Positions 1,849-41,643 of a stretch of DNA of 64,000 nucleotides are shown piece by piece. The DNA is from an uncultured Clostridium sp. GTDB taxonomy: Bacteria > Bacillota > Clostridia > TANB77 > CAG-508. How positions within the stretch are numbered: position 1 is the stretch's first letter; every line of letters starts with the position of its first letter. A program made the position numbers and the translations under genes. The stretch lies in assembly GCA_900554175.1 (NCBI GenBank), contig USGK01000002.1, positions 31,402 through 95,401 on the forward strand, given 5' to 3'. A model generated the notes under the pieces. It was not told where the DNA came from. It did not search any database and was given only the letters and a program-made list of their open reading frames with translations.

Positions 1849-3682
1849 AATTGATATTGATATTGGCACTCTCAATATCTTGTTTAAATAAACTATCAAT
1901 TTCTTCTTCAGATAATAATTCATAATCAGTTTCTTTTAATTCTAAATCAATTACTTCATTCATATTTATATTATCTTCAAAGTTAAATGATATTGTTCCT
2001 ATTGCATTTGAAGTATCTCCATGTATATATGGCTTAATACTCTTATTTCCAATAGGTGTATTTATACTATTAAAATGTTCCTTTAGATTAAATTTGAAAT
2101 CTTTTACAGGTCTTTCTCCTCTCACAAAAAGTAATGCATATTGATTATCTAGCATTCTTACTTCATCAGGAGTTAAAAGCTCTCTACCTGCAATTTGGTC
2201 ATTTTTTGAATAATTACCATGTGAACCAAAAGTTCTTCCAAAAGTGTTAGTATCTATTGTTTCTTTTCCAAGAAGTTCAGACACATACTTATGAGTCGAT
2301 TGCTCATTTCCACCTAAATACAAGAATTCATCACAATTTCCTACTATACTTTCCCATTGTTTTTCAAATAAAGCCTTTAATTGTGCTAAATTTTGCAATA
2401 TGATAGAAACCGAAACTTCCCTACTTCTCATAACTGATAATATCTTATCAAAATCATCAGGTAGGCTTACATTAGCAAACTCATCCATAACAAAATGAAC
2501 ATGTACAGGTAAACTTCCACCATATTTGTAATCTGCTAAATAAAATAGTTGTTGGAATAATTGTGTATAAAGTACACTTACTAGGAAATTAAAAGATGTA
2601 TCATTATCAGGTATTATAGCAAATAATGCTACTTTCTTTTCTCCTAAACTTGGTAAATCTAATTCATCAGTTTGAGTTAATTGTGCTACACTCTCTAAAT
2701 TAAATTTTTCAAGTCTTGCAGCTAGTGTTACTTGTATTGATTTTAATGTTTTAGCAGAACCACTATGATATGCTCTATAATATTTTAATGAAATATGTTC
2801 AGGATTTGTTGTTTCTAATCTATTAAATAACATATCAAGTGGACTAACATAATCGTCATCATCTTCTTTTACATCTCCTGCTCTTAATAATTCCATAACC
2901 ATAACAAAGTTTTGTTCTTCTTCAGGAGCTTCATATTTTAAGTAAAAGATTAAGGCTAATAACAACATACTTGCTGCAGTATCCCAAAACGGATCGTTTG
3001 TACTACTTCCTTTTGGAGTGGTAGATTTAAATAGGTTTGTTACTAATTTTTGAACATCATTATCTGATTTCAAATAAACAAATGGATTGTAGCAATGTGA
3101 TTTTTCCATATTTATTAAATCTAAAACTCTTACCTCGTATCCATTTTGTTCTAGTAAATGTCCTGTATCTCTAACAATTTCCCCTTTAGGATCTAGCACA
3201 ACATAAGATGTATTGCATTGCATAACATTAGGTTTGCAATAACTATAAGTCTTTCCTGCACCACTACCTCCAACAACTAATACATTTACATTTCTTCTGT
3301 GTTTCTTTCCATTTAATCCAAGTGAAACATTTTTAGTTAGTATCTTATTATAATTATTAGGTTGTTTATATTTCTTGTTTAATTCTTTTGCCTCGCCCCA
3401 TTTGGCAGAACCATTTTCTTCTCTTCTCCTGTAATTCTTTCTAGTAGATTCGTAAACTAATATTGACATTATATATATTAGCAAAAAAATAAGAATAGTT
3501 TTTATACTACTCTCCATAAATGTAATATTGAAAGGATTACTTAAAGCATCACTTCCATTTTTTATTATCTCTATTAATCCACCATTTATATATGGTGCAA
3601 CTAATAGTGCTAACCATATTACAGGAATTATTCCAAAAATATATACAACTCTAGCAATTTTCTTATCATCGTTCAAAGGCAA
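1847..3682 (-). CDS. type IV coupling protein (VirD4/TraG family)
   Basis: 611 aa. Two N-terminal TM segments, Walker A VVGGSGAGKT, Walker B-like VHFVMDEF. Confidence 0.9.
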   Translation of the reverse strand: MPLNDDKKIARVVYIFGIIPVIWLALLVAPYINGGLIEIIKNGSDALSNPFNITFMESSIKTILIFLLIYIMSILVYESTRKNYRRREENGSAKWGEAKELNKKYKQPNNYNKILTKNVSLGLNGKKHRRNVNVLVVGGSGAGKTYSYCKPNVMQCNTSYVVLDPKGEIVRDTGHLLEQNGYEVRVLDLINMEKSHCYNPFVYLKSDNDVQKLVTNLFKSTTPKGSSTNDPFWDTAASMLLLALIFYLKYEAPEEEQNFVMVMELLRAGDVKEDDDDYVSPLDMLFNRLETTNPEHISLKYYRAYHSGSAKTLKSIQVTLAARLEKFNLESVAQLTQTDELDLPSLGEKKVALFAIIPDNDTSFNFLVSVLYTQLFQQLFYLADYKYGGSLPVHVHFVMDEFANVSLPDDFDKILSVMRSREVSVSIILQNLAQLKALFEKQWESIVGNCDEFLYLGGNEQSTHKYVSELLGKETIDTNTFGRTFGSHGNYSKNDQIAGRELLTPDEVRMLDNQYALLFVRGERPVKDFKFNLKEHFNSINTPIGNKSIKPYIHGDTSNAIGTISFNFEDNINMNEVIDLELKETDYELLSEEEIDSLFKQDIESANININ

Positions 3683-9791: not shown

Positions 9792-12700
9792 TTAACATCT
9801 TTCTGGAGATTTTTTATCTGGAGATTTATCTTCTTTTTCTTCTTGCTCATCTCCAATAATTTCATGATCATCATCATTAATTTTTAACTCTGCATTTATT
9901 TCATCTAGTTTTCTTTGTTTTTCTTTTAATTCTTGTTCTTGTGGAAATTCTTTTTGACTTTCTACTTTAGCATTTTCTAGTTGTAGTTTAGTATTATCAA
10001 GTTTCTCTCTTTCAAGTGGAATATCTCTTGCAATATTCTCTAAACAATTATTTATTCTTGTAATATTACCATTTGCATCCACACCTAAATCAATCGTATA
10101 ACTAAATTTATTCTTTAGCTTTAACTTTATATTTCTAGTAATAGAGTCAAAGCTAATTTCCATTTTGAAGCCTCTATATTCTCCAACTTCTTTTACTTCC
10201 ATACTCTTTAATAATTGAGTACATTCTAAAAGTTTCTTTCCTGCATCTGCTTTTTCAGAGTATTCTTTACCATCAATTATCATTGGAGAAAATCCATCCA
10301 TATTTGGTTTAGTATATTCTTGTAATTTTATAGTATCTTCTTCCATTGCTGCAATTTTGTTATTTAATCTTGTAATTTCTTCAGGATAATACTTTATAAC
10401 TTTATCTTGTAAAGCATACTTTTGATTCATAAAGTTTTGCCTTAATAATTTCAATTTTGATATTTCACTATCTAAATTAGTCTTTTCCAAAATTAGAGGA
10501 TTACCTGTTGCTAATGCTTTTATTTCCCCATAAGACAGAGCTTTCTCATCTATATCTTCCATACTTCTTGCAGGAGTTTTAGATGTCATTATTTGAGAAA
10601 TAAACTTTTGCTTTTGTTCTACTAATTGATACATATAAGCATCAAAAGTTTTTTCAGTAACATAAGAATAAACGAAAACTTTTTCATTCTCGTTACCCTG
10701 TCTTATCATTCTACCATTTCTTTGTGTTAAATCGCTTGGTTTCCAAGCACAATCTAAATGGTGTAAAGCAATAAGTTTATCTTGAACATTAGTACCTGCT
10801 CCCATTTTAGAAGTAGAACCCATTAAAACTCTAACTTCTCCCTGTCTTACTTTGCTAAATAGTTCTTTCTTCTTTGTTTCATTATCTGCCTCATGAATAA
10901 AAGCTATTTCTTCTTCAGGAATACCTTTTTCAATAAGTTTTGTTTTAAGCTCATTATAAACATCTGTAAATTCTTCTTTTTCAAAACCTTTCATATCTTT
11001 AGGAGTAGATAAATCACAAAATACAAGTTGTGTTGATTTTTTATCAGAATTTTCGCTCCATATTTTATAAACATTTTCACAACAAGAATTAACTTTGCTA
11101 GTATCACTATCAGGTAATAATGGATTCATAAGCCTTTGCTCTAATGCTAATTTTCTACCCTCATTTGTTATTTTAAGCATATTATCTACTGATGCATCTA
11201 TTGAGCCACTTCTAATACGATCTGCTCTTTTTCCTAATTCTGTTACCATATCTTGTTGTATTTCGCTAGGTTTTACAACCACATTTATATTTTCAAATTC
11301 AGGAGTTGGAAGATTCAATGTTTCAGCAGTTTGTATGTCAGCAACTTCTTTAAACATAGCCATAAGTTCAGGAAGATTATGAAATTTTGCAAATCTTGTT
11401 TTAGCTCTGTAGCCTGTACCTTCAGGTGCAAGTTCTATTGCAGTAACTGTTTCTCCAAATGTACTAGCCCAATTATCAAAATGTTCTAATTCATTTTTTC
11501 TTAATTCTCCATATTGTAAATATCTCTGCATTGTATATAATTCTGCCATTGAATTACTTACTGGAGTTCCTGTTGCAAAGACTGTGCCTTTGCCTCCTGT
11601 TATTTCATCAAGATAACGACATTTCATAAACAAATCAGAACTTTTTTGTGCCTCTGTTTGTGCAAGTCCTCCTACATTTCTCATTTTTGTATATAAAAAT
11701 AAGTTTTTATAATTATGAGCCTCATCTACAAACAATTTATCAACACCTAGTTCTTCAAAAGTTACTACATCATCTTTTCTTTCTTGTTTATTTAATTTTT
11801 CAAGTCTTGTTTCTAATGTTCTCTTTGTTTTTTCTAATTGTTTTATAGTATAATTTTCTCCCCTACTTGCTTTTACATCTGCAATACCTCTTGTTATATC
11901 ATCGATTTGTTCTCTTAATATTTCCTCTTGTCTTTCAATAGACATTGGTATTCTTTCAAATTGAGAATGTCCTATAATTACTGCATCAAAATCTCCTGTT
12001 GCTATTCTTGAACAAAACTTCTTTCTATTTTTAGTTTCAAAGTCTTTTTTAGTTGCAACAAGAATATTAGCAGATGGATATAATTGCAAAAATTCACTAG
12101 CAAATTGCTCTATTATGTGATTAGGGACAACAAATAAAGACTTGTTACATAGTCCAAGTCTTTTACTTTCCATTGCTGCTGCAACCATCTCAAATGTTTT
12201 TCCTGCTCCAACTTCATGTGCTAATAAAACATTATTACCATATAAAACATGTGCAATAGCATTTAATTGATGAGGTCGCAATTTTATTTCAGGATTCATT
12301 CCTACAAAATCTATATGTGAGCCATCATACTCACGAGGTCTTATTGAATTAAATTTATCATTATAAATTCTTACAAGTTTATTTCTTCTTTCAGGATCTT
12401 CCCATACCCAATTTAAAAATTCCTCTTTGATAGTATCTTGTTTGCTACTGGCAATAGCTGTTTCCTTTCTATTAAGAACTCTTTGTTTTCTACCATCTTC
12501 ATCAATAATAGTATCAAATATTTTTACATCTTTTAGATTTAATGTTTGTTCTATTATTTTATATGCATTTATTCTTGGTGTTCCATATACTGAGTATGCT
12601 TTTACATTTTCTCTATCAGAGCTTTTATTTTCTATATACCATTCTGCATTTATATTAGAATACTTTACTTTAATATCCCATTGCTTATATCTTGGTGTAT

Positions 12701-15700
12701 CTAATAATTCAAAAATAAATTGTCTTATTACTTCAGGAGGTATCCATGTTGCACCTAATTTAATTCCTATTTCACTAGCAGTTAAATCTTTAGGTATAAC
12801 CTCTTTTAGATTATCTACATTTATTTGATATTCAGGATGTTCAGCTAATTGACTTTCTGCGATTTTTAATTTTTCTCTAACATTTCCTGATAAATATTCA
12901 TCAGCAGTTACATATTTTTCTTCTATTGGAACTTTGAATATTACTCCTTTTAGTTCGTTTATAATTGTATCTTTATCTTTTCCAGTTAATTCAGACATAT
13001 AATCTAAATCTACTTTTGCTTTTTCTTGAATAGATAGAATTAGAGCCTCATCTGAAGTATCAACTTCTTTTATTTCTTTTTTTGCTTTTATAGTTCTTTT
13101 TGTGAACATATCTGCTTTTCCAATAAAATTACCTTCTCCATCTAATTTTTCAAGTGAGCATAACAAGAAATAACTACTATCATTTGAAAAAGCATTCTCA
13201 TTTGCCCTAGAATTAATTAAGCCATAGTCTTTTGTAAATTTATCATATAATTGATTAAGTTTTGCTTGTGCAAGATAAATATCTCCATCAGAAAAATCTT
13301 GCATTTGAAAATCTATAAGTTCTCTTACTTGCTCTCTTAATGCAATTAAGCCTCTAATTCTGTTTTGATTTGTTAATGGTAAATCATCTTGTAATAGCAT
13401 TCTTGAATTTTCTCTAAAATACAATTTGTTATCAACTATTGCATAAGAAAAATTCTTTACATCAGGAGTTGCAGGAATAGATGTATCTTCTGTTTCTATC
13501 TCGTTTTCAATAGATATAGCTTGTATTTCTCCATGAATATTAGTAATGGCAACATTCAATCTATCTTCTAATTTTTCTCCATCTATTGCTTTACAAGTAG
13601 AATCAAAGCCATATTGTGTACTCTCTATCTCCATTTTTCCTAAAATCATATTAGGTTTATCAACAAAATATTTATTCATTGTGATATTATTTTCATCTTG
13701 ATCTAAATATACCCAGTCTGGCATTATATCAGTTAAGTTTTCTCTCTTTTGTAAAAAGATAATATCTGATGTAACTTTTGTTCCTGCATTTTTAGTAAAT
13801 GTATTATCAGGTAATCTAATCGCACCAAGTAAGTTTGCTCTTTGTGCTATATACTTTCTAACATCAGGACTTGCTTTGTCCATAGTTCCTTTTGATGTAA
13901 TAAAAGCAACTACTCCTCCTGGTCTTATTTTATCTAAAGTCTTTGCGAAGAAATAATCATGAATTAAGAAATTGTTTTTATCATATCTTTTATCATTTAC
14001 TTTGAAATCTCCAAAAGGTACATTTCCAAGTGCTACATCATAAAAAGAATCAGGTAAATCTGCCTTTTCATAACCTTGCACTTTGATATTCGCATTTTGA
14101 TATAACTGCTTTGCTATTCTTCCACTAATACTATCTAATTCAACACCATATAATTTTGACTTTTGCATTTCTTGTGGCAACATTCCTAAAAAGTTTCCTG
14201 TTCCACAACTTGGCTCTAATATGTTTACTTCTTCAGCTCCCATATTATGAATTGCTTTATATATTGCATTTATAACAATAGGTGGTGTATAAAAAGCAGT
14301 TAGGGTACTTGCTCTTGCAGAATTATATTCTTCAGGAGTTAATAATGATTTTAATTCATTATATTCTTGCGACCAATTATCTTTTTTCTCATCAAATACA
14401 TCAGGAAGACCACCCCAACCTACATATTGAGAAAGAATTTCTTGTTCTTCTTGATTTGCAAGTCTTTTTTCATCTTCTAGCTCTCTTAATAATTTTATAG
14501 CCTCTATATTTCTTCTAACTTTTTCTTTTGGAGTTCCTTCTCCTAAAGAGTTATTATCAATATGATAATTTATTTTGTCTTGCTTAATTTTAGATTCTGT
14601 TTCTACAATAGGTTCTTCTATTACTTCTTCAAAATTTCTTGGATTATTATTATATAGATTTAATGCTCTTAAATAACTTTCATTTCTAGTCATTGGATAA
14701 TGAGCTTCTTCATACATTGTCATATCCATTAAAACTATTTGGTCATATTCTCTATTAAAAGCCTCAACTCTATATTTTCTTTCATTTTCTAAATAGATAA
14801 TTTGTCCTATTTCAAATTCAGGCTTATCTTCTTTTAGCTCGTTTACTGCATTTATTGCATTATTTATAACAACTTGTTTAACTTCTTCTGCAACATCTTC
14901 AACTTTTTGACCACTTGTAATGTAGTCCATATCATCTTGTGATACTTCTTTAAGATTACTATCGGCTAGTTCTTCAATATCAGTAAATTCTGCAAGTCTT
15001 TTTCTAATGCTCATTAAAGTTTCATTTTCTTCATTGTCAGAATATTCTAATAAGCCACCATCTTGTTCAAATCCCAATTGATCGTATATTTCATAATAAT
15101 ATCCTTCTTCATTTGTATGAAAGTGAAAGTAATTACCATTTTTTAATTTATAGTTTTTATCTATATTTTGAATGTCTATTTCTTCAGTATCATTTGATTT
15201 ATCTTCGTCAAATACTCTATTAAACATCCACTTTTCATTTTCATAGTCATTTTCTAGCCAATTTTGATATTCTTCTTTTTCGTTATCAACAAAATATCTA
15301 TCTAATAAGATAAGCTCTCCAATTCGTTTTTCTATTGTGTTCCAATTAACTTGCATTGTATCTTCAACATCTCTTTTAGATAGTTTAATACCCTTACTTG
15401 GACTATATTCAACCCATATACCATCAAGACCTTTTACACCACTTGTTCCATAATAGTTAAATTCTTTTTTCAGAAAATCTTGTCTTTCTTTTGATGAAAA
15501 AGTTTCTTGATATAAGCGATATACCCTAAATTTACCATTTTCATGACCAGTTCCATCTTGTAATGCTTTATCTATCATCTCTTGGGTAAAAGAAAAAGCA
15601 GGAGTATTTTCTACTTCTGCTTGTGTTTCTATATTATCAATTTGTTGTTCTACACTAGGTAATTCTTTAATTGGTGGTATATAACTATCAGAGAATAGAT

Positions 15701-16883
15701 TTAATTGTAAATTAGTTCCTGCATTACTATTTCCTCTGCTTGTGCTTTGATTGAATTCATCTGTCCTACCCATTCCATTTGATTGTTTGCTTTCATTTCC
15801 TCGTTCACTTTGAATTTCTCTGCTAATTGTTTGATTATTTCTTTCACTCTCGTTTGAGATGTCTGTTCTATTTCTCCTAAATGTTCTTCCATTTTGCCAT
15901 CCATCATTAGCTCTGTGTAAAGTCCTTTTTTGTGTTCTTTCAGAAATGCTAACCTCATTCTTGAATATTTCCCTTGTGGTAGGTTCTTCGTTTTTGGTAA
16001 TGCCACCTGTGGTACTTGATAATCTCCCATTTGTTTGTATGTTACTTCTATCATAATCATCACTTCTCCTTTCTTTACTTTCATGATACTCTCTATTATT
16101 ATTTTTAACAAATGTGTAATTTTTATTATTTATAGATTTTTCTATATTTATGACAGTAGAATATATTTCTCGTAATTCTTGTTCTGCAATATCACTTATT
16201 GCTGCACCTAATCTTGAAATAACTTGTCTTGTATCAAAACTTGTTATTTGATTAAATGATTCTACATTAAATTCTTCAGATGGATCTAGTCTACATCTTT
16301 TCATTACCATATATGTAATTGAATTAGTAAGCAAAGTTATAAAAGCACCATCAACTTCATTTTCTTCTAAATCTTTTAATGAACTATATTTTACAACTTC
16401 TTTAAGTTCTTTCAAATAGTCATTAAGATTATCTTCTACTAGGTTTTGTGTTGCTGAATAAATTGCCTCACCTAAATTATTTTTTATTACTAAATCTCCA
16501 AAGTTATTTTCTAATGTTTCAATAAGTCCATTGTGATATGATTCTTTAACTTCCCATAGTTTTAATTCTTTATTTATTCCACTATAAGTATCTGATATAT
16601 CAAAAACATGTCTTATAATATTTCTACCATCTTGTAAAGAAATAAGAGCAATACCTTTTGCACCTTTAGTAACCCATCTTTTCAGTCTTTTATTCCAAAC
16701 TTCAATTTCTGCACAAGCAGTAGCATCAGGTTTTTGAGCATATATTAAAACTTGTTCATTAAAATCATATTTGTAATTACTACTTGCAGTATCAAGAAAT
16801 TTTACCCATTCTTCTGGTTTAGATGTTATATCTTTTAATGTTTCTCTTGCCATTTCGTTGATTAGTTGATATTTATTAGGCAT
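9792..16883 (-). CDS. giant multidomain ICE protein: ArdC-like N-domain, N6-adenine DNA methyltransferase, SNF2/DEAD-type helicase, C-terminal coiled coil
   Basis: 2363 aa. MTase motif [14 protein letters not shown] and motif IV GNVPFG. Helicase motif [35 protein letters not shown]. Start overlaps the stop of the 78-aa ORF (TAATG). Confidence 0.9.
15701..16060 (-). CDS. tnpV: TnpV-family protein encoded out of frame inside the giant ORF
   Basis: ORF track 15701-16111, in a different frame from 9792-16883. AAAGGAGAAGTG precedes ATG at 16060 (second ATG at 16054). Has its own TAA. Product has TnpV hallmarks: [64 protein letters not shown]. Confidence 0.75.
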
Positions 16884-17119
16884 TAACTTTCCTCCTTTCT
16901 CTCTTCTTTTTTAGCTGGTTCATTATCATCTTTTAAGTATTCTAATGTATTTCTTTCCTTTACATATTTCCTTAAAAGAATAATATTTTTAACATCTTTA
17001 TCTTCAGTTATTGTTTCTAAATCTTCTATTTGTAATTTTGAAATAGAAGTTTCATCTCCTTTTCCAATTTCAAATAGTTTCATTAGTGTTCTATATCTTG
17101 AATTGTCCTTTCTAGGCAT
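16883..17119 (-). CDS. small ICE hypothetical protein (78 aa)
   Basis: Translationally coupled (TAATG) to the giant gene. GGAGGTG RBS upstream. Charged. Confidence 0.5.
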
Positions 17120-17140: not shown

Positions 17141-17169
17141 AACAAAAAGAGTTAGAATATATCTAACTC
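17141..17169 (-). terminator. rho-independent terminator after GNAT-like gene
   Basis: GAGTTAGA-ATATA-TCTAACTC stem-loop followed on the minus strand by TTTTTGTT. Confidence 0.6.
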
Positions 17170-17179
17170 CTCATAATTA

Positions 17180-17836
17180 CTACACTACTTTTTTTCTCAT
17201 ATATTTTGTATTTTCAATAAAATCAAAACCATTCATCTTATAAAAAGATATTAATTTTTCCATTAATAGTTCTTTATTTTTATTATTATCAGAAACATTT
17301 TGATATCCTTTTTCTTTATTTAGTACTCTTGGTTGTGGTAAAACTATTATTTTACATGTGAATAAATTTGTATAAAAGTATAATATTTCATCTAAATTAT
17401 CTATAATATAACTACCTATACCCATATTTCTAAACTGTTTATTTATATAAAAATCTTCTATATAAGTTATAGTTTCATTTTCTTCTGCTATCTCTGGTCT
17501 AATATTATTGTCCTCTCCGATTATTGCACAAGCCATATCATAGAAATCCCAGCCTCTACAATCTGCAACATCATGAAAATCTATATCAAATCTTGTAAAA
17601 TCCATTGGGATAAAAATGCTACCTCTTATATGTCCAATTTTCATTTCAGAATCATCTTCAAGATTAGTTGCATATATCTCTATCCAAAAATCTGTTATAA
17701 ATCGACTATCATATTCCATCCCTTCGATATGATTCAATGCATCTTCAGTTACATACATCAAATTTGGTCTTCGGATATGTGTTTTGAAAGATATAGAATC
17801 CCATCCTTTTTTCTCTAATTTTTCTAATTCATACAT
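17180..17836 (-). CDS. GNAT-fold acetyltransferase-like cargo protein
   Basis: 218 aa. FYINKQFRNMGIGSYIIDNL (Q/R-x-x-G-x-G/A acetyl-CoA motif) and C-terminal ISFYKMNGFDFI. Bracketed by two hairpins. Confidence 0.55.
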   Translation of the reverse strand: MYELEKLEKKGWDSISFKTHIRRPNLMYVTEDALNHIEGMEYDSRFITDFWIEIYATNLEDDSEMKIGHIRGSIFIPMDFTRFDIDFHDVADCRGWDFYDMACAIIGEDNNIRPEIAEENETITYIEDFYINKQFRNMGIGSYIIDNLDEILYFYTNLFTCKIIVLPQPRVLNKEKGYQNVSDNNKNKELLMEKLISFYKMNGFDFIENTKYMRKKVV

Positions 17837-17899: not shown

Positions 17900-20800
17900 T
17901 TATTTATCTTTGTTTTTATTGCGATTATGAATAATAATGTAAGCAATTCCTAATATTGATAAAATTAGTATTCCACCAATTAGTTTTATATTACTTTCAT
18001 CTCCTGTCTTTGGAACTACTATTTTCTTGTTCTCAAAAGTAAATTCTATTGTGCTATCTTTTTCTTCTATTTGTCCATTATCTACGAATATTCCTTTGTC
18101 ATTTATTTCAACTTTTGCTATTCTGCTAGATAATTCATAATCTTTTGGAGCTTTTATTTCTTTGATGTAATATGTGCCATATCTTAAATCTTCAAATAAA
18201 GCTGTTCCATCTTCTTTGTTAGATTTAACCTCTTTAATTAGTTTGGTACATTCTGGATCTTCATAAATACCAAAAATAAAATTATCTTTAATAATTTCTT
18301 TAGTTTCAGTATCTACTTTAATTACTTTTACATTTTTAAGTATTGGCATATCTTTCATCTCGATTTTTTGAGTTTCTTTATCAGCTGTAACTATGAATTT
18401 TATTTCTTCTGTTATTTCATAACCATAAGGAGCTGTTGTTTCTTTTAATATATATGTCTTTCCTTCTTCTAAATCTTTAACTTGATGTGGTTCTTTGGTA
18501 GATGTCCATTTGTCTATTGTATTTCCATCTTCATCAGTTACTTCTAGTTCTGCTCCATCTAATTCATTGCCATTTGTTATATCAGTTTTTGTAATTTCAA
18601 CTAATTTATCAATCATAACAATTTTTTGAGTAGCCTTATCTGTTGTAACTTTAAACTCAATATCAGATGCTTTTACATAGTTTCCTACTGCTAGTTCTTC
18701 ATGTAATTTATATGTTTTGTTTTCTTCAAGTCCTGTAACCTTATGAGCCTCTTTTCCAGAAGTCCATTCATCAATTACATTTCCATCTGCATCTAATACT
18801 TGTAATTTTGCTCCCTCTATTTCTTTACTAGAAATATCTTCTTTTGACATTTCAACTATTTTGTCTACAAGTTCAATATGTTCATTTTCTTTTTTATCTG
18901 AAACTTTGAACTCAACATCAGTTGCTTTAACAAATCCATCAGGAGCTACTTCTTCATGTAGTCTATATGTTTCATTTTCTTTTAAATTCTTGATTTTGTG
19001 TTCTTCTTTAGTAGAAGTCCATTCATCTACTAGATTATCATCTTTATCAAATACTTGAATTTTAGCACCCTCTATTTCTTCTCCTCCAATATCTACTTTA
19101 GACATTGATACTATTTTATCTTTCATATTTACTATTTGAATTTCATTAGTATCTTTAATAATGAATTTGATTTCAGTAGCTATAACATATCTCTCTGGAG
19201 CAATTTCTTCTTTTAGTTTGTATTCTTTTCCTATTTTTAGTCCCTCAATTTTGTAAGTTTTTTCAGTAGAAATCCACTCATCAATTACATTATCTTCAGA
19301 ATCTAAAACTTGTAATTTTGCTCCTGCAAGTTCTTTATCGCCTGTAATATCTGTTTTTGAAAAATCTACTAATGTTGTATCATTGATAACATCTAATTTT
19401 TCATCATAAACTTTTGTAGTTAAGTCTTTTTGTTCATATTTAACCTCATATTTATTTCTATTTAATACAAGTCCATCTAAAGTTTTAGTTTCTTCAATTT
19501 CATAAGTTCCCATTGGTAATTCTGAAATTATTAGTTTTCCATCTTTAGTTAGATTATATTTATTTATTTCTTGACCTTTATTATAAATTTTGCTACCATC
19601 AGCCATATCAATAATATCTTCTTTTGCAGTTAGTTTAAATTCAATACCTGATAAATCAGATATATCTATTAATGATGTATCCACATCTTCTCTTAATGCT
19701 ATTTCTTTATCTAATTCTATAGTTCCTGTTGGTTGTTCATTTTTTACTACTACTTCTTTAATAAAATCTCCATCTTTATCAGTATCATAATCTTTGATAT
19801 TCTTTATTTCAAAAGTAACAGGTTTATCTAATTGTAAAAATCCATTAGGTACTTTTATCTCTGTAATTTCATAACTACCTACAGGCAATTTTAATGGTGT
19901 CGTAACCTCTGATTTATTATCGTTTGTAGTATTAAAAGAATTATTAGGAACAACTATATTATCTGCATTTGTTGTAAATGAAGTATATGTTGTATTTCCT
20001 ATTTTTTGAGATATAGCCTCTCCTTTTTTGAATAATATCTTTTTTGTAGCACGATCATAAATATCTTTTGTTGCCTTAATTTCAAATGTTGTTGAATTTA
20101 ATGTAACATTTTTTCCAGTTTTTAAGTCTTTCTTTACTATTTTAATGTAAGATTCTAATTGTTCATTATTTACTACAATATGTTTAGTTTTCTTTGATAC
20201 TTCATTTATTTCTGTTTCATCATTAGTAATTGAGAAAGTAAAATCAACTGCTGTTTCATAATCTGTTGGTGTTTTTGTTTCTTTTACTATATATTTTCCA
20301 TAAGGAAGATTATTTTGTGTATATGCATTTCCATCTTTATCAGTTTTAATAATTTCGTAAGTTGGAGCAATAACTTGAGCTTGAGAAACTCTATTAGCAT
20401 TTACATTTACTTTATTACCTTCTTCATCAATACCATTCCATACTTCTGCATAAGTATAACCTTGCTCGTATGCTTTTTCTACTGCTGAATTTAATTTTAT
20501 AGTAAATTCTGCACCCTCTAATCCTGGTGTTTCTCCTGAATTTTCCTTTATACCAGATTTAAAAATATGAACTCCCATTTCTTTTACTTTTTCTAAACTT
20601 GTTGTAGTATTAAAAATAACTTTTGTATTTTGGTCTTTATAAACTAAATTAACCTCATATTCTTTAGTATCTATCATATATCCCAAAGATGCTGTTTCTT
20701 CTTTAACTACATATTTTCCTAAAGGTAAATTAGTGATATCTTCTGTAGTTCCTTTTTCATTCATTGTTCTAGTAGCTACTAAATCGCCATTAGAATAAAA

Positions 20801-22738
20801 TTTTTTAGTTCTAGCTTTATTGTATATATCTTCTTTTGCATATACTTTATATACTGCTCCTGTAAGCATTGCATCTCCCTGTGGAATTGAACCAGTTTTA
20901 GAATCTTTCTTTATAATTGTTATATTCCCTGTTGGTTCATTATCTATAACATTATTTATATCTAAATAAATAACTTTTGTATTTTGATCTTTATACTTTA
21001 ATTCTGCATCAAATTCTTTTGTATTTAATAAATATCCCTCTGGAGCATTTGTTTCTTTAACATAGTATTTACCTAAATATAAATCAGAAAATTTAACCAT
21101 TCCCTCATCATTTGTAATAGCTTTTGTAATTAAATCTCCTTTTTTGTACCAAGTTTTAGTTCCTGCTACATTCTTTATATCTTCTCTTGCATAAAGTGAT
21201 ATTTCTGCTCCTTTTAGTTTGTTATTATAATCATCTGTTTTATATACTTTTATTTCTCCTGTTGGAGTAGTATCAATTTTTTCAAAACTTTCTAATACTA
21301 TTTTTTGTGTTTGTCCTTTATAAGATAAAGTAACATTATGCTTTGTAGAATCTAACAAATAACCTGTTGTTGCTTGTGTTTCTTCTACTATATATTTTCC
21401 AAGTGGAAGATTAGTAATTTCTGCTAATCCTTTGCTATCTGTTGTAATATTAGCAATTACTTGTCCCTCTGTATAATATGTTTTAGTTCCTTCTACATTT
21501 TTTATATTTTCATTTGCTATAACTTTGAATATTGTCCCCTTAATTAAGTCGCCTTGTTCACTTTTTTTAATTACTTGAATTGTTCCTGTTGGCTCATTAT
21601 TAACTATTGCTTGAGTTGCAGTTTGATTTACTTTCACTTCAACATTATAAGCCTGTGTATTTAATAAATAACCATTAGGAGCTGATTTTTCAGTAATCGT
21701 ATATATTCCTTTTCTTAATTTATCTATAGTTATTTTTCCATTAGTAACAGTTATATCTTGATTATATCCATTTGGTCCTGTAACATTAAATATTGCACCA
21801 TTTACTAAATCTCCATTTGTATTTAATTTTTGTAATTCTAATTTACCAAATGTTTCAATTTCTAAAGAAAAATTTAATGTTACTGGATCATTGTAACTCA
21901 TACAATATAATTGATTTTGCACACCTGATGCAAATTCAAAATAAACCATTGTATCATTATCTTCTGTTCCATTTTTTATCATTCCCCACTCTCTAAAGGT
22001 ATTGTCTGAAATTCTGTAATTCTCTAAATTTGTATTTTCATCTACTGAAATAGTCATTGAATTACTACCATTTTGATGAACAAATCTAATTCCATCTTTT
22101 GTATTATCTATTGTTCCATATTCTGCAAGAACCCCATTAGAGTCGTCTATTGTTTTTGTTTCTCCTGCTTGAATTGTGATTGTATCTCCATTAAAGCTAG
22201 GTCTTCTTTCAATACTTGCAATTTCGTTATTTATTCTATTTTTAAAATCTACATAACCTTGTTGCTCATCTGCATTAATAAATGTGGCATTACTTTGTCC
22301 TAGTATTTCCCAAATATATTGTTGAGTAAATACATAGTCCCATTTTACCCATTTCATATCACTTGCTAAAATACCACCATCTACTGTATATCCTCCATTA
22401 TTTTTATACCATCCTAAATAAGCAACTTTACAAGCCTTTCTAATATTAGAATTAGTTGGAGTATAATAAACTCCATTATATGATGCTCCTGTCTTAAAAT
22501 CTATTCCATGCTCTGCACAGAATACCGTTCTTCTTTCTCCTGTATTTAAGTTGTTTAATCTTCTTATTAGTACACCTGTTGTTCCACCTGCATTATCTGT
22601 TGTTTTCATTCCAGAGGCATATTGACCTCCAGACCATGTTCCACTTCCAGATGCTGCAAAAACAGGTTGAATTACACTAAATAATATTAAAAATAGCATT
22701 ATGACAGATACTATTTTATTAACTTTTTTTATTTTCAT
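17900..22738 (-). CDS. sortase-anchored surface adhesin with thioester domain and multiple SpaA/Cna-B-type domains
   Basis: 1612 aa. Signal peptide. Thioester-type Cys (RTVFCAEHG) and Gln (FTQQYIWE) motifs. Repeated ..G..Y.(V/I).E...P.GY.. domains. C-terminal VPKTG plus TM plus HNRNKNKDK. Confidence 0.85.
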   Translation of the reverse strand: MKIKKVNKIVSVIMLFLILFSVIQPVFAASGSGTWSGGQYASGMKTTDNAGGTTGVLIRRLNNLNTGERRTVFCAEHGIDFKTGASYNGVYYTPTNSNIRKACKVAYLGWYKNNGGYTVDGGILASDMKWVKWDYVFTQQYIWEILGQSNATFINADEQQGYVDFKNRINNEIASIERRPSFNGDTITIQAGETKTIDDSNGVLAEYGTIDNTKDGIRFVHQNGSNSMTISVDENTNLENYRISDNTFREWGMIKNGTEDNDTMVYFEFASGVQNQLYCMSYNDPVTLNFSLEIETFGKLELQKLNTNGDLVNGAIFNVTGPNGYNQDITVTNGKITIDKLRKGIYTITEKSAPNGYLLNTQAYNVEVKVNQTATQAIVNNEPTGTIQVIKKSEQGDLIKGTIFKVIANENIKNVEGTKTYYTEGQVIANITTDSKGLAEITNLPLGKYIVEETQATTGYLLDSTKHNVTLSYKGQTQKIVLESFEKIDTTPTGEIKVYKTDDYNNKLKGAEISLYAREDIKNVAGTKTWYKKGDLITKAITNDEGMVKFSDLYLGKYYVKETNAPEGYLLNTKEFDAELKYKDQNTKVIYLDINNVIDNEPTGNITIIKKDSKTGSIPQGDAMLTGAVYKVYAKEDIYNKARTKKFYSNGDLVATRTMNEKGTTEDITNLPLGKYVVKEETASLGYMIDTKEYEVNLVYKDQNTKVIFNTTTSLEKVKEMGVHIFKSGIKENSGETPGLEGAEFTIKLNSAVEKAYEQGYTYAEVWNGIDEEGNKVNVNANRVSQAQVIAPTYEIIKTDKDGNAYTQNNLPYGKYIVKETKTPTDYETAVDFTFSITNDETEINEVSKKTKHIVVNNEQLESYIKIVKKDLKTGKNVTLNSTTFEIKATKDIYDRATKKILFKKGEAISQKIGNTTYTSFTTNADNIVVPNNSFNTTNDNKSEVTTPLKLPVGSYEITEIKVPNGFLQLDKPVTFEIKNIKDYDTDKDGDFIKEVVVKNEQPTGTIELDKEIALREDVDTSLIDISDLSGIEFKLTAKEDIIDMADGSKIYNKGQEINKYNLTKDGKLIISELPMGTYEIEETKTLDGLVLNRNKYEVKYEQKDLTTKVYDEKLDVINDTTLVDFSKTDITGDKELAGAKLQVLDSEDNVIDEWISTEKTYKIEGLKIGKEYKLKEEIAPERYVIATEIKFIIKDTNEIQIVNMKDKIVSMSKVDIGGEEIEGAKIQVFDKDDNLVDEWTSTKEEHKIKNLKENETYRLHEEVAPDGFVKATDVEFKVSDKKENEHIELVDKIVEMSKEDISSKEIEGAKLQVLDADGNVIDEWTSGKEAHKVTGLEENKTYKLHEELAVGNYVKASDIEFKVTTDKATQKIVMIDKLVEITKTDITNGNELDGAELEVTDEDGNTIDKWTSTKEPHQVKDLEEGKTYILKETTAPYGYEITEEIKFIVTADKETQKIEMKDMPILKNVKVIKVDTETKEIIKDNFIFGIYEDPECTKLIKEVKSNKEDGTALFEDLRYGTYYIKEIKAPKDYELSSRIAKVEINDKGIFVDNGQIEEKDSTIEFTFENKKIVVPKTGDESNIKLIGGILILSILGIAYIIIHNRNKNKDK
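18341..19366 (-). repeat. four tandem ~86-aa (~258-bp) Cna-B-like repeats inside adhesin gene
   Basis: Units share (E/D)..GA(K/E)L(Q/E)V.D.(D/E).N.(I/V)D.W(T/I)S..E.H....L.E...Y.L.E..AP.G(Y/F). Coordinates derived by counting residues from the C-terminus. Confidence 0.8.
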
Positions 22739-37444: not shown

Positions 37445-40024
37445 TTACTTTTCAATCCATTTGACTAAATCTAAATTTTCACTGTCTAAAAGCATTTCAT
37501 GAACTGGCATAACTCTGAATGTATATCCATAATTTCCACCAGTTTCTAAAGATATTTTAGCACTGTATTTATATCTTCTATATTCTTCTTCTTTACTAAT
37601 TAATTTCATTGGTACTATTTTTATATCTTCAACTCTACCATCATCTGAAATTTTTCCACAATATACTTCAACTCTTATGTTGTCTACACTTATATTTGGT
37701 AAAGTAACTTTACAAGTAACCTCAATTTTTTCTCCTGCATCTATTTTTACGTTTTCAGGATTATCTGATTGTTCTATTAATATATTTTGCCAGTTTTGCT
37801 TCATATCTTTTTTCCAGTTAACAAATTGAATTACATTTTCTAAATCTTTGAAATACTTGTTAGTATTTTCAATTAGAGGCATATATAATTTTTCCATATA
37901 ATCTACAAGCATTCTAGCTGTGCTATATTTTCCACCTGTAGTTATAATTGAATTTTTCATTATTTCCATCCACTTTTCTGAATATGTGTCATCGGATTCT
38001 CTATCATAAAAGGCTGGTATTATTTTATTCTCTAACGTGTTATATATACTCATACTATCTGCTCTATCTTGATCTTGATATGATGCGTATTCTTCATTTG
38101 TTCCAATAACCCATCCATTTGTTTGATCATATCCTTCAGCCCACCATCCATCTGATACGCTGAAATTTACAACACCATTTACAGATGCTTTTTGTCCACT
38201 TGTTCCAGATGCTTCCATTGGTCTTCTTGGAGTATTTAACCATACATCTACTCCACTTACTAAATATCTTGACATTGCCATATTATAGTTTTCCAACAAG
38301 AAAATCTTTCCTTTAAATTGTGGTTTTAATGATAATTCATGTATATTTTTTATTAAATCTTGCCCTTCTTTATCTGCTGGATGAGCCTTTCCTGCAAATA
38401 ATATTCTTACAGGTCGCTCTGTATTATTTAATATTTCTGTTATTCTTTCTAAGTCGTTAAATATTAAAGTTGCTCTTTTATATGTAGCAAATCTTCTTGC
38501 AAATCCAATTATTAAATCATTTGTTGAAAGTTCTGATGTAATTTGTCTAATTTCATCATAATTAATGCCTGCTTTTCTTAATCTTTCTGTTGTATTTTGT
38601 TTTACCAAATCTATTAATTTTTGCTTTCTTTCAATATGTGCTGCCCATAATTCATCATTTGGTATATTTTTTATTCTTTTCCATGTTTCATCTAAATAAA
38701 TTCTATCTTGCCAATATGGAGTAGTTGGTGTACATAAATATTTATTATATAATTCTTTTAAGTTTGCTGCAAGCCATGTACATGTATGAATACCATTTGT
38801 TACATACGTAATTGGCGATTCATTTGCTGCTATATTGGGCCATACTTCTCCAAATAGTTCTCTTGAAACTTCTCCATGAAGTTTACTTACTCCATTTTTC
38901 TTTCCTGCTATTTTTAATGCAAAGATTCCCATATTAAAACCTGATTCTAAATCTGTACATGGTTTCATTCCTAATTTTAGGAATTCTTCTTCATCTAAAC
39001 CTAGACGTGGCCAAAAGTCCGAGAAATATCTTATCATTAAATCAAGTGGAAATATATCATTTCCAGCTGGAACAGGTGTATGTGTTGTAAATACAGTTTT
39101 TGATGATGTTATTTCTTTTGCAACTTCAAAAGAAACCTTCTTTTCTTCCATTATATTTTTTATAACTTCTAAAGTTAAAAAAGCAGAATGACCTTCATTC
39201 ATATGATAAATTGTTGGTTTTAATCCCATTATTTTAAGTAGATTTGCTCCTGCCATTCCCAAAATTATTTCTTGTCTTATTCTTGTTTCTTGATTTCCTC
39301 CATATAATTTTAAAGTGGTTTCTCTATCTTCATTTATATTTTTATCTATATCAGAATCAAGCAAATATAATTTAATTCTACCAACATTTATTTGCCATAC
39401 CTTCAAGTAAATCTTTCTACCTAAATATCTAACATATGTTATTAGTTCTTCACCATCTACGTCTTTTACTGGATATATTGGTAAATTCTCTAAATCTATA
39501 TTGCAATATTCTGATTTTTGTACTCCATATCCCTCTATTCTTTGTCTAAAATAACCATTTTTATATAATAAACCTACTCCAACTAATGGAAGTCCTAAAT
39601 CACTTGCAGATTTTAAGTGATCTCCTGATAATATTCCAAGTCCCCCTGAATAAATTGGAATTGTTTGATCTAATCCATATTCTGCTGAAAAATATGCTAT
39701 TAAATCTTTTTTATTCTCTGGATATTTTTTATCAAACCAAGTATCTTTACTTGTCATATAATCTTCAAAATTTTTAGCTATTTTTTCATATTCTTTAACA
39801 AAATTTGGGTCGCTTGCTGCTTTTTCTAATCTAGCTTGCGATACTCTTCTTAGAAATTTTATAGGATTCTTATTTACTGTTTCCCATAAATCTTTATCTA
39901 TTTTCTTTAATAATCTTAGGTATTCTGTATTCCAACTCCACCATAGATTATTTGCTATCTCTTGTAATTTCTCAATATTTTTTGGTAATTGTGGATTAAC
40001 TGTTATTTTATTAAAAATGTACAT
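37445..40024 (-). CDS. glgP: alpha-glucan phosphorylase (GT35, GlgP family with DUF3417-type N-terminus)
   Basis: 859 aa. PLP-lysine region EASGTSGQKASVNG. GGLGILSGDHLKSASD. Confidence 0.9.
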   Translation of the reverse strand: MYIFNKITVNPQLPKNIEKLQEIANNLWWSWNTEYLRLLKKIDKDLWETVNKNPIKFLRRVSQARLEKAASDPNFVKEYEKIAKNFEDYMTSKDTWFDKKYPENKKDLIAYFSAEYGLDQTIPIYSGGLGILSGDHLKSASDLGLPLVGVGLLYKNGYFRQRIEGYGVQKSEYCNIDLENLPIYPVKDVDGEELITYVRYLGRKIYLKVWQINVGRIKLYLLDSDIDKNINEDRETTLKLYGGNQETRIRQEIILGMAGANLLKIMGLKPTIYHMNEGHSAFLTLEVIKNIMEEKKVSFEVAKEITSSKTVFTTHTPVPAGNDIFPLDLMIRYFSDFWPRLGLDEEEFLKLGMKPCTDLESGFNMGIFALKIAGKKNGVSKLHGEVSRELFGEVWPNIAANESPITYVTNGIHTCTWLAANLKELYNKYLCTPTTPYWQDRIYLDETWKRIKNIPNDELWAAHIERKQKLIDLVKQNTTERLRKAGINYDEIRQITSELSTNDLIIGFARRFATYKRATLIFNDLERITEILNNTERPVRILFAGKAHPADKEGQDLIKNIHELSLKPQFKGKIFLLENYNMAMSRYLVSGVDVWLNTPRRPMEASGTSGQKASVNGVVNFSVSDGWWAEGYDQTNGWVIGTNEEYASYQDQDRADSMSIYNTLENKIIPAFYDRESDDTYSEKWMEIMKNSIITTGGKYSTARMLVDYMEKLYMPLIENTNKYFKDLENVIQFVNWKKDMKQNWQNILIEQSDNPENVKIDAGEKIEVTCKVTLPNISVDNIRVEVYCGKISDDGRVEDIKIVPMKLISKEEEYRRYKYSAKISLETGGNYGYTFRVMPVHEMLLDSENLDLVKWIEK

Positions 40025-40164: not shown

Positions 40165-41643
40165 ATGGAAGATTTTGGACTTTATGAAAATATTGCCAAA
40201 AGAACTGATGGTGATATATATGTTGGTGTTGTCGGTCCAGTAAGAACTGGAAAATCAACATTTATAAAAAAATTTATGGATTTACTTGTAATTCCAAATA
40301 TTGATAATGATTACAAAAAAGAACGTGCAAAAGATGAATTGCCACAAAGTGCTGGTGGAAAAACAATTATGACAACAGAACCAAAATTTGTACCTAATGA
40401 AGCTATTGATATTACTATAAATGAAAATTTAAAGTTAAAAACAAGACTTGTTGATTGTGTTGGGTATCTAGTTCCAAATAGTATTGGTTATCTAGAAGAT
40501 GGAAAACCTAGAATGGTTAAAACTCCTTGGTTTAATGATGAAATTCCTTTTGAACAAGCAGCTGAAATTGGAACCAAAAAAGTAATTGAAGAGCATTCAA
40601 CTATTGGAATTTTAATTACAACAGATGGTTCAATTACAGAAATACCACGTGATGATTATATAAAAGCTGAAGAACGTGTTGCTAAAGAATTAAAAGCACT
40701 TAATAAACCATTTATTATATTACTTAATTGTGCAGATCCACATAGCATGGAATCTTTAAAACTTGCCAATAATTTAAGTGATAAATATAATAAAACTGTC
40801 ATACCAGTAAATTGTGCTGAATTAAATAATGATGATATTACAAATATATTTTCAAAAATGTTATATGAGTTCCCTGTAAGTCAAATCAATTTCAAATTAC
40901 CAAAATGGATTAACGCTCTTGATTTGTCTCATCCATTAAAAACCCAAATTTTTAGTGAAATAAAAAATGCTTTTGATGATATATCTATTTTAAAAAGTGC
41001 CTCAAGTTGTGCTGAAAAAATTTCAAATTCAGAAGTCATTACAAGTACCAATGTTGATAACATTGAGCTTGGTACAGGAAACATAAATGTATCAATTACA
41101 CTCAAAGATAATTTATTTTATAAAGTATTAACAGAAATGACTGGTGTAGAAATCCAAAATGAAAGCGATTTATTTAGTATAATTACAGAACTTTCTCAAA
41201 TTAAGACAAAATATAGTAAAATTTCTACTGCCTTAGATGAAGTTGACCGTAAAGGTTATGGAATAGTTACTCCTTCTATTGATGATTTAATATTAGATGA
41301 ACCTGAAATGGTAAAACAAGGTTCAAGATTTGGTGTAAAATTAAAAGCAACTGCTCCTTCATTGCATATAATAAAAGCTAATATCGAAACTGAAGTTTCT
41401 CCTATTGTGGGTTCTGAAAAACAATCCGAAGATTTAGTAAATTATTTACTTTCAGAATTTGAAAATGATCCTAAAAAAATTTGGAACTCTAATATATTTG
41501 GAAAAAATCTACATGAACTTGTAAATGAAGGTCTTCAAACTAAACTCTCAAAAATGCCTGAAGAAGCTCAACTAAAACTTCAGGAAACGCTTGAAAGAAT
41601 TGTAAATGAGGGCAGTGGAGGATTAATCTGTATTATTTTATAA
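40165..41643 (+). CDS. spoIVA: stage IV sporulation protein A
   Basis: 492 aa. IYVGVVGPVRTGKSTFIKKFM Walker A. Conserved C-terminus GSGGLICIIL. GGAGG RBS. Confidence 0.95.
   Translation: MEDFGLYENIAKRTDGDIYVGVVGPVRTGKSTFIKKFMDLLVIPNIDNDYKKERAKDELPQSAGGKTIMTTEPKFVPNEAIDITINENLKLKTRLVDCVGYLVPNSIGYLEDGKPRMVKTPWFNDEIPFEQAAEIGTKKVIEEHSTIGILITTDGSITEIPRDDYIKAEERVAKELKALNKPFIILLNCADPHSMESLKLANNLSDKYNKTVIPVNCAELNNDDITNIFSKMLYEFPVSQINFKLPKWINALDLSHPLKTQIFSEIKNAFDDISILKSASSCAEKISNSEVITSTNVDNIELGTGNINVSITLKDNLFYKVLTEMTGVEIQNESDLFSIITELSQIKTKYSKISTALDEVDRKGYGIVTPSIDDLILDEPEMVKQGSRFGVKLKATAPSLHIIKANIETEVSPIVGSEKQSEDLVNYLLSEFENDPKKIWNSNIFGKNLHELVNEGLQTKLSKMPEEAQLKLQETLERIVNEGSGGLICIIL

Follow-up and report, generated by a model that had tools for sequence, protein, structure and literature searches.

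A tnpV gene nested out of frame within the gene for a giant polyvalent protein on conjugative elements of Bacillota

Can one run of nucleotides in a bacterial conjugative element be kept open in two reading frames of the same strand, and does each of these frames encode a protein? The question is raised by a locus in a 64,000-nucleotide (nt) stretch of contig USGK01000002.1 from an uncultured Clostridium sp.; this stretch is called the window below, and its positions are used as coordinates. Two open reading frames (ORFs) are listed here on the minus strand, one at 15701..16111 that encodes 136 amino acids (aa) with similarity to the transposon protein TnpV, and one at 9792..16883 that encodes a 2363-aa methylase-helicase (Table 1). 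The short ORF lies wholly within the long one, on the same strand and in another frame, which is what defines a nested gene. Host codons, that is, those of the giant ORF, begin 1 nt ahead of the TnpV codons, placing TnpV in the +1 frame, and the third frame across the overlap contains 20–21 stops. A first-pass annotation, made from the letters of the sequence without database searches, had placed the two frames, the alternative ATG codons at 16060 and 16054, a Shine-Dalgarno (SD) sequence and a TAA stop at this locus, and the ORF list and the sequence agree with it on every one of these points. Our reading is that the locus, part of a conjugative element in a low-GC member of the Bacillota, is very probably a pair of genes nested on the same strand in different frames. 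Comparison with relatives shows that neither frame has been lost and that the signals for translation are conserved; we infer that both products are expressed and that tnpV has an internal promoter.

The inner product belongs to the TnpV family, as the first-pass annotation had recognised. In a profile search, the 119-aa product matched the Pfam TnpV profile PF14198 along its full length (profile positions 1–111 of 111; E=3.1e-39; 133.8 bits, with a cutoff of 27), and a homologue search found 825 TnpV homologues; NCBIfam holds no model for TnpV. A size of 117–119 aa on a Firmicutes mobile element fits the family norm of ~115–130 aa, and it is the 117-aa form, initiated at ATG 16054, whose start aligns with the one used in relatives. 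The product ends in ELIYN directly before its TAA. The AlphaFold2 model (mean predicted local distance difference test score, pLDDT, 84.8) consists of a beta-hairpin followed by a helical bundle. The free-standing context in the style of Tn4451, with a large serine recombinase and a Mob gene as neighbours, is not that of the window tnpV; it is seen for P0089-type relatives and is a trait of context rather than of the protein family. Read in the host frame, the same nucleotides encode a low-complexity linker rich in N, R, S, E, T and G, a composition already described in the first-pass annotation. Hydrophobic and aromatic residues make up a fraction of 0.146 of the window linker, compared with 0.33 of the remaining giant protein, and the linker is probably a hydrophilic, disordered tether.

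The nesting recurs in relatives. Collections holding one genome per species were scanned three times, with a TnpV query, with the N-terminal domain of the giant protein (N-domain) alone and with an N-domain alignment, which gave ~150 loci in total; the two N-domain-based scans are unbiased with respect to tnpV. We analysed 114 distinct loci, nearly all from GTDB species-representative genomes, which dereplicate into 49 lineages with <85% nucleotide identity. Every N-domain locus has a TnpV profile match directly downstream in the +1 frame. The host frame is free of stops from the start of the N-domain past the tnpV stop in 114/114 distinct loci, the host ORF runs >1400 codons beyond tnpV in related loci, and the N-domain and helicase parts are in the same phase in all of them. 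With hmmsearch, long six-frame translations yielded false negatives at L002, L079-82 and L140 and in the window as a whole; L140, an apparent exception, proved on rechecking of a short stretch to have a nested TnpV (E=1e-41), and L002 and L079 were read by eye.

The nested loci span 26–57% GC and come from Clostridia, Bacilli, Paenibacillaceae, Desulfosporosinus and Dehalobacter. Cultured isolates with the arrangement include Acetivibrio mesophilus N2K1, Anaerofustis butyriciformans HA2171, Paenibacillus flagellatus DXL2, Cohnella lubricantis DSM 103658, Desulfosporosinus and Pseudoflavonifractor, and two finished plasmids carry it as well. An assembly artefact or one-off event was considered and rejected, given that nesting is present in the near-identical loci L001, L004 and L005, in distant relatives, in the cultured isolates and in the finished plasmids. 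Across these genomes, nesting is a phylum-wide property of this conjugative-element gene family and not a peculiarity of the window. Breaks of another kind were seen in L083, a long-read hifiasm contig (s6788.ctg007534l) in which many short ORFs stand in place of the SpaA and giant genes and a shift inside the overlap joins the N-domain to TnpV; these breaks are probably homopolymer or indel errors, a caution for frame-based surveys.

To ask whether the open host frame is more than chance, we kept the TnpV protein fixed and redrew its synonymous codons from flanking codon usage. For the window overlap (118 codons), 13.6 host-frame stops were expected, and none of 500 resamplings gave an outcome with zero stops; the estimate in the first-pass annotation, of one chance stop per 10–15 codons, was about right. 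Across the 49 lineages, 2.6–14 host-frame stops were expected (mean 9.2) and 0 were observed in each, with a probability of this outcome of ≤0.05 in every lineage and usually <0.002, per-lineage values that are not fully independent because the lineages are related. For a stop to arise in the host frame, a TnpV codon must end in T and the next one must begin with AA, AG or GA. At such stop-forming positions, T occurs in 0/1873 cases in nested genes, compared with 30% in standalone genes. Even in the other contexts, where no stop would result, T occupies 14% of host first positions in nested genes and 36% in standalone genes of similar GC, a depletion that removes codons for Phe, Leu, Ser, Tyr, Cys and Trp from the host frame.

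Standalone copies of tnpV provide a natural control. Among 81 Tn4451-type tnpV genes from genomes of similar AT-richness, the −1 frame contains 9–20 stops (mean 15.3), and seven other standalone tnpV copies have 3–14 stops in that frame. The frame thus closes quickly once tnpV stands outside the giant gene, which is the strongest evidence that it is kept open by selection within it. Together, the 114 nested loci, the avoidance of host-frame stops in 49/49 lineages and the 3–20 stops of the standalone genes bear out the proposal of the first-pass annotation that both frames are maintained.

The TnpV frame carries the signature of an ordinary gene. In codon alignments of 45 lineages, divergence within the overlap is lowest at TnpV codon position 2, intermediate at position 1 and highest at position 3, as in a gene read in a single frame. 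TnpV third positions, which are host first positions, change ~8–12% more slowly than flanking host third positions in the more divergent identity bins; in the closest pairs they are no slower. This periodicity, combined with the near-synonymous rate at TnpV third positions, indicates that TnpV is under ordinary purifying selection while the host amino acids are nearly free to vary. No stops are found in the TnpV frame, although up to 7.6 were expected in AT-rich lineages when the host-frame codons were resampled. Amino-acid conservation and codon periodicity persist to 33–45% identity, and profile matches range from E=1e-39 to 1e-41.

Signals for separate translation of tnpV are also conserved. 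The motif GAAAGG(A/G)G is present 6–10 nt 5' of the ATG in essentially all 49 lineages across GC contents of 26–57%. Under a strict test for GGAG or AGGA, 40/49 lineages were positive, compared with 8.6% of +1-frame ATGs that were taken as controls from other parts of these host ORFs. In four lineages a stop closes the TnpV frame 0–1 codons 5' of the ATG, and 23/49 lineages have such a stop at a distance of up to 12 codons. Because the TnpV frame is closed so near the ATG in these lineages, an N-domain–TnpV fusion made by a frameshift farther upstream cannot be the conserved product. Conservation of the SD and the ATG instead points to independent initiation of TnpV translation.

A candidate sigma-A-type promoter lies a short distance upstream of the SD. 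The motif TTGNNN-17-NANNAT occurs at the homologous position, 25–58 nt before the ATG, in 45–46 of the 49 lineages, against a background expectation of 0.05–0.11 per interval of that size. The spacer is exactly 17 nt and its columns are poor in information; the −10 element takes forms such as TATGAT, TATCAT, GATAAT and CACAAT, with A2, A5 and T6 almost invariant. T6 falls on the synonymous third position of a host NAY codon and is T in 46/46 lineages, including lineages in which NAT accounts for 27–59% of NAY codons (P ~1e-7, ignoring relatedness). On balance, we lean slightly towards an internal promoter of this type and thus a transcript of tnpV's own. If this promoter is real, the short transcript would be free of competing host-frame ribosomes.

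Several observations weigh against the nested-pair reading or parts of it, beyond the relatedness of the lineages. Within the overlap, the rate of change at host-frame positions is close to that of synonymous sites in the flanks, so that the linker sequence carries little information. Scanned alone, the window has promoter-like sites at a level not above that of shuffled sequences; the promoter is put forward because its position is conserved across lineages, not because of the window scan. Its −35 TTGNNN sits on host residues R-T-F, and the motif as a whole overlaps a conserved host peptide, R-T-F ... Y/H-D/N. For the TnpV model, Foldseek found no significant match in PDB or BFVD. A role for TnpV like that of lambda Xis is only postulated in the literature (PMC3158075); the fold search gives it no support, and we regard it as conjecture. 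Finally, two variants uncouple the N-domain from the linker. In L002, whose TnpV is 79% identical, a TAG stands directly after the N-domain and gene callers give three genes, with the host frame in the same phase and otherwise open. In the P0142 allele, the N-domain is fused in frame to TnpV in a 396-aa protein that is identical in 24 contigs from several samples, and the difference from the nested type is one A fewer in an A6/A7 run just 5' of the tnpV SD. Such variants suggest either that a continuous giant protein is not strictly indispensable or that these alleles are defective.

The P0142 allele bears on a second option that the first-pass annotation had raised alongside a true gene within a gene, namely that the nested ORF is the landing frame of programmed ribosomal frameshifting or transcriptional slippage, with TnpV as the C-terminal part of an N-domain–TnpV fusion of ~396 aa. 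Many metagenome proteins of 391–398 aa do fuse the N-domain in frame to PF14198, and the recurrence of P0142 in different samples and its single-A difference are what a slippage product might look like. The fusion junctions, however, fall at many positions, both 5' of the overlap and inside it; such scatter is expected from random indels or assembly errors wherever two frames are open, and argues against a programmed event. No slippery motif is conserved across clades, the A6/A7 run being confined to one. In that clade, the run (at ~8835-8845 in L079) toggles the N-domain between the TnpV frame and the linker frame when L079-L082 are compared with L010, and it could be slippage-prone or phase-variable there. 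A frameshift also fails to account for the stops that close the TnpV frame shortly before the ATG, for the conserved SD and ATG, for a standalone copy (L009, described below) that is homologous to the window over the SD-to-stop span and not beyond it, and for the nested type being found in 114/114 distinct loci. A protein-database search with the N-domain returned only fragments or fusions of ≤440 aa and no giant proteins; such a search is unsuited to estimating how frequent each arrangement is, and frequencies were taken from the genome loci, among which the uncoupled variants appear rare and indicate no programmed site. We consider the frameshift explanation very unlikely, and of the two first-pass options the true gene within a gene is the one that these data favour.

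It is even harder to credit that the locus consists of three separate genes (ardC-N-like, tnpV and methylase-helicase), with the host frame across tnpV untranslated and open by history or composition. This arrangement in relatives, which the first-pass annotation had named as evidence that would count against nesting, was found in one relative, L002, where the gene caller reports three genes after the TAG; even there, a single TAG interrupts a host frame that is otherwise open. The near-synonymous rate of change at host-frame positions of the overlap is also what an untranslated frame would show. Against this stand the lack of host-frame stops in 114/114 loci when 2.6–14 are expected in each, the complete avoidance of T at stop-forming sites, the 3–20 stops that soon accrue where tnpV is standalone, and the constant phase of the N-domain and helicase parts. 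Nor does the helicase part have a conserved start codon after tnpV: a separate start there was considered and rejected, since the Met chosen by the gene caller in L002 and L079 is not conserved and is Glu in P0181. That the TnpV frame is an unexpressed relic, with a linker derived from a frameshifted TnpV domain and the giant protein as the sole functional product, might be suggested by records that annotate the giant gene alone (for example, Virgibacillus plasmid NZ_CP033047), but is the least credible of these explanations in view of the periodicity and conservation of TnpV to 33–45% identity, its profile matches of E=1e-39 to 1e-41, its conserved SD, ATG and stop, and its lack of stops where up to 7.6 were expected in AT-rich lineages.

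Our preferred model is therefore one in which two proteins are made independently from shared DNA. Ribosomes that initiate at 16883 would translate the ArdC-N-like domain first and continue through a hydrophilic linker of ~135 codons into the LPD16, methylase and SNF2-helicase body, producing one giant polyvalent protein. Read 1 nt later, the same DNA would form an autonomous tnpV cistron with its own GAAAGGAG, ATG and TAA, and the sigma-A-type promoter in the last codons of the N-domain region may drive a short internal tnpV transcript. Selection would act mainly on the TnpV protein, while the choice among synonymous TnpV codons would keep the host frame free of stops and of T-initial codons, which specify hydrophobic or aromatic residues.

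Table 1. Parts of the nested gene pair, in window coordinates
Feature	Position	Strand	Description
Giant host ORF	9792..16883	−	2363 codons; N-terminal ArdC-N-like domain, linker, LPD16, methyltransferase-like region, SNF2/ResIII helicase, Helicase_C
N-terminal domain of the giant protein	16101..16883	−	~260 aa; ArdC-N-like fold, from HMM and predicted model
Candidate sigma-A-type promoter for tnpV, within host coding sequence	16083..16111	−	−35 TTGTTA 16111-16106; spacer 17 nt; −10 TATCAT 16088-16083
tnpV Shine-Dalgarno sequence	16066..16073	−	GAAAGGAG; host-frame reading E-R-R
tnpV coding sequence (dual-coding stretch)	15701..16060	−	ATG 16060 gives 119 aa; ATG 16054 gives 117 aa; TAA 15703-15701
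Host-frame low-complexity linker	15699..16109	−	aa ~259-395; bridges the N-domain and the remaining part of the protein
Remainder of the giant ORF, 3' of the overlap	9792..15698	−	LPD16, methyltransferase-like region, SNF2 helicase; Pfam matches

The giant ORF shares with polyvalent proteins a giant multidomain product that combines an LPD with enzymatic modules and is encoded on an element with a type IV secretion system (T4SS). Pfam matches are found to LPD16 (aa 578-653), SNF2-rel_dom/ResIII (aa 1532-1727) and Helicase_C (aa 1976-2063), with a weak match to Methyltransf_25 at aa 888-953. The neighbouring genes encode a T4 coupling protein, a relaxase, a Toprim/DUF3991 protein, ParB and a surface protein with SpaA repeats, and this company identifies the locus as a conjugative element. 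A hidden Markov model (HMM) built from 17 homologues of the N-domain matches 16101-16883 with E=2e-126. The AlphaFold2 model of this domain has a pLDDT of 91.7, and its best Foldseek match in PDB is ArdC of R388 (6i89; probability 1.0, E 0.01, template-modelling score 0.41), while at the sequence level the domain has no match in Pfam or PDB. Thus the label "ArdC-like" given to the domain in the first-pass annotation finds modest support from the predicted fold and none from sequence searches, and we retain it as plausible.

The surroundings of the pair show some further regularities. A 78-aa ORF at 16883-17119 on the minus strand, with no Pfam match, ends in a stop codon that overlaps the first base of the giant gene's ATG, and this one-base overlap suggests translational coupling; a gene of 75–76 aa occupies the equivalent place in L002 and L079. 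Just 5' of the giant gene, 17900-22738 (minus strand) encodes a 1612-aa surface protein with ~12 SpaA (prealbumin-fold) repeats, and L001, L002 and L079 show the same succession of SpaA protein, small ORF and giant gene. Between a GNAT-like ORF (17180-17836) and the small ORF lies a terminator-like hairpin (17146-17172, minus strand) with an 11-bp stem and a T-run; two terminator-like sites were found, compared with 0.2 expected from shuffles. The right part of the window is chromosomal, with a glycogen-phosphorylase-like gene (37445-40024), SpoIVA (40165-41643) and Mfd/TRCF (55148-58603). It also holds a second giant ORF (43535-51601, minus strand; 2688 aa) that combines a GH94-type glycoside phosphorylase/hydrolase with a glucoamylase-like domain and is unrelated to the conjugative element. 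Across the whole window the GC skew is negative and the minus strand carries almost every long ORF, which places the window on one replichore, with its genes co-oriented with replication.

Same-strand nested genes with a start of their own are already known. In Bacillus subtilis, the 46-codon comS lies out of frame within srfAB and has a narrow taxonomic range. The likeness to tnpV is close, as both are small genes contained wholly in a giant multidomain Firmicute gene, on the same strand, in another frame and with their own translation start. However, tnpV is longer, at 115–120 codons, belongs to an established Pfam family that also occurs standalone, is nested across Bacillota of 26–57% GC, and overlaps a linker rather than a catalytic module. 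The overprinted genes of small phages, such as B within A, E within D, and K in phiX174 (viral overlap reviews, PMC8227390), share same-strand out-of-frame nesting and internal ribosome-binding sites, and there too one frame is the most constrained and the other low-complexity or disordered. Unlike those size-constrained viruses, the replicon that hosts tnpV is a large conjugative element, which makes genome compression an unlikely driver of the nesting. Two other functional genes hidden in annotated genes are ardD, antisense within tniA of Tn5053 (PMC3533173), and gndA, a same-strand nested small ORF of E. coli (PMC11230408); ardD is on the opposite strand and gndA encodes a very short peptide, and neither has comparative support over hundreds of species.

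Other systems resemble the locus in their parts. TnpV of Tn4451/Tn4453 (PMC3158075) is likewise a PF14198 protein of the same length on Firmicutes mobile elements, with 33–52% identity, but its gene is free-standing by a large serine recombinase and a Mob gene and has 9–20 stops in the −1 frame, whereas the window gene is embedded. The polyvalent proteins with ArdC-N described by Iyer et al. 2017 (PMC5512222) match the host product as giant T4SS-element proteins with an ArdC-N-like N-terminus, LPD16, a methylase-like region and a SWI2/SNF2 ATPase; the nested cistron is an extra layer here, and that survey makes no mention of TnpV, overlapping frames or frameshifts. Genes with programmed frameshifts, such as dnaX, those of IS3-family transposases and prfB (PMC5009743), yield two products with a common N-terminal part that diverge at a frame overlap, and the tnpV locus likewise has natural alleles with an in-frame fusion. 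Unlike them, the tnpV locus has no conserved shift site, a stop just before the ATG in several lineages, and its own SD and start. In the available literature that mentions TnpV, no discussion of an overlap was found. Thus the nesting of tnpV appears to be new and the case unusually long and deeply conserved, whereas the principle has precedents in comS, phiX174 and gndA.

Standalone copies of tnpV hint at how the two forms are related. Free-standing tnpV genes occur in Tn4451-like units beside a serine recombinase and a Mob gene and also on resistance plasmids. In L009, a standalone tnpV (2900-3360) encodes a protein 75% identical to the window TnpV; eight stops have accumulated in what was once the host frame, the stretch homologous to the window reaches from the SD as far as the tnpV stop and no farther, and the copy carries an extended −10 promoter of its own, of the TGnTATAAT type (TGGTATAAT). 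This copy looks like a recent escape of the tnpV cassette. In a neighbour-joining tree, which is rough, short and unrooted in practice, standalone TnpVs fall in at least three places within the nested diversity, and the deepest branches are nested. This placement, for which L009 serves as an illustration, suggests that the cassette bounded by the SD and the stop has left the giant gene more than once, although it is only a lead. A bolder and doubtful extension is that the TnpV family has been overprinted for most of its history within the linker of the giant ArdC-N/methylase/helicase gene, with its own promoter and ribosome-binding site in host coding sequence, and that the copies of Tn4451-type elements and resistance islands are repeated escapes. 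Were this right, no same-strand gene-within-gene known outside viruses would be longer or more deeply conserved, and the family would offer a natural system for tracing the direction of overprinting and escape.

The arrangement also has consequences for annotation. The table for Cohnella herbarum plasmid NZ_CP051681 (L159, 8115-14375) contains TnpV and no giant gene over an open frame of 2086 codons, with the proviso that this table omits pseudogenes, and that for Virgibacillus plasmid NZ_CP033047 (L160, 8277-14747) contains a giant SNF2 protein and no tnpV; elsewhere, gene callers split the locus into fragments or chimeric fusions. Because records annotate one gene of the pair and callers fragment the locus, counts of TnpV genes and polyvalent proteins in mobile elements of gut Firmicutes are probably distorted.

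Long protein-coding overlaps in bacteria are rare and disputed, and claims for them usually rest on expression data from single strains. The 360-nt tnpV overlap, with comparative support from >100 species and natural standalone controls, offers a clean case for the sharing of DNA by two proteins. The conjugative elements that carry it are very widespread and form one of the main routes by which genes move among gut Bacillota. The nesting now ties TnpV to the leading-region or anti-restriction module of these elements and provides an entry point to its role.

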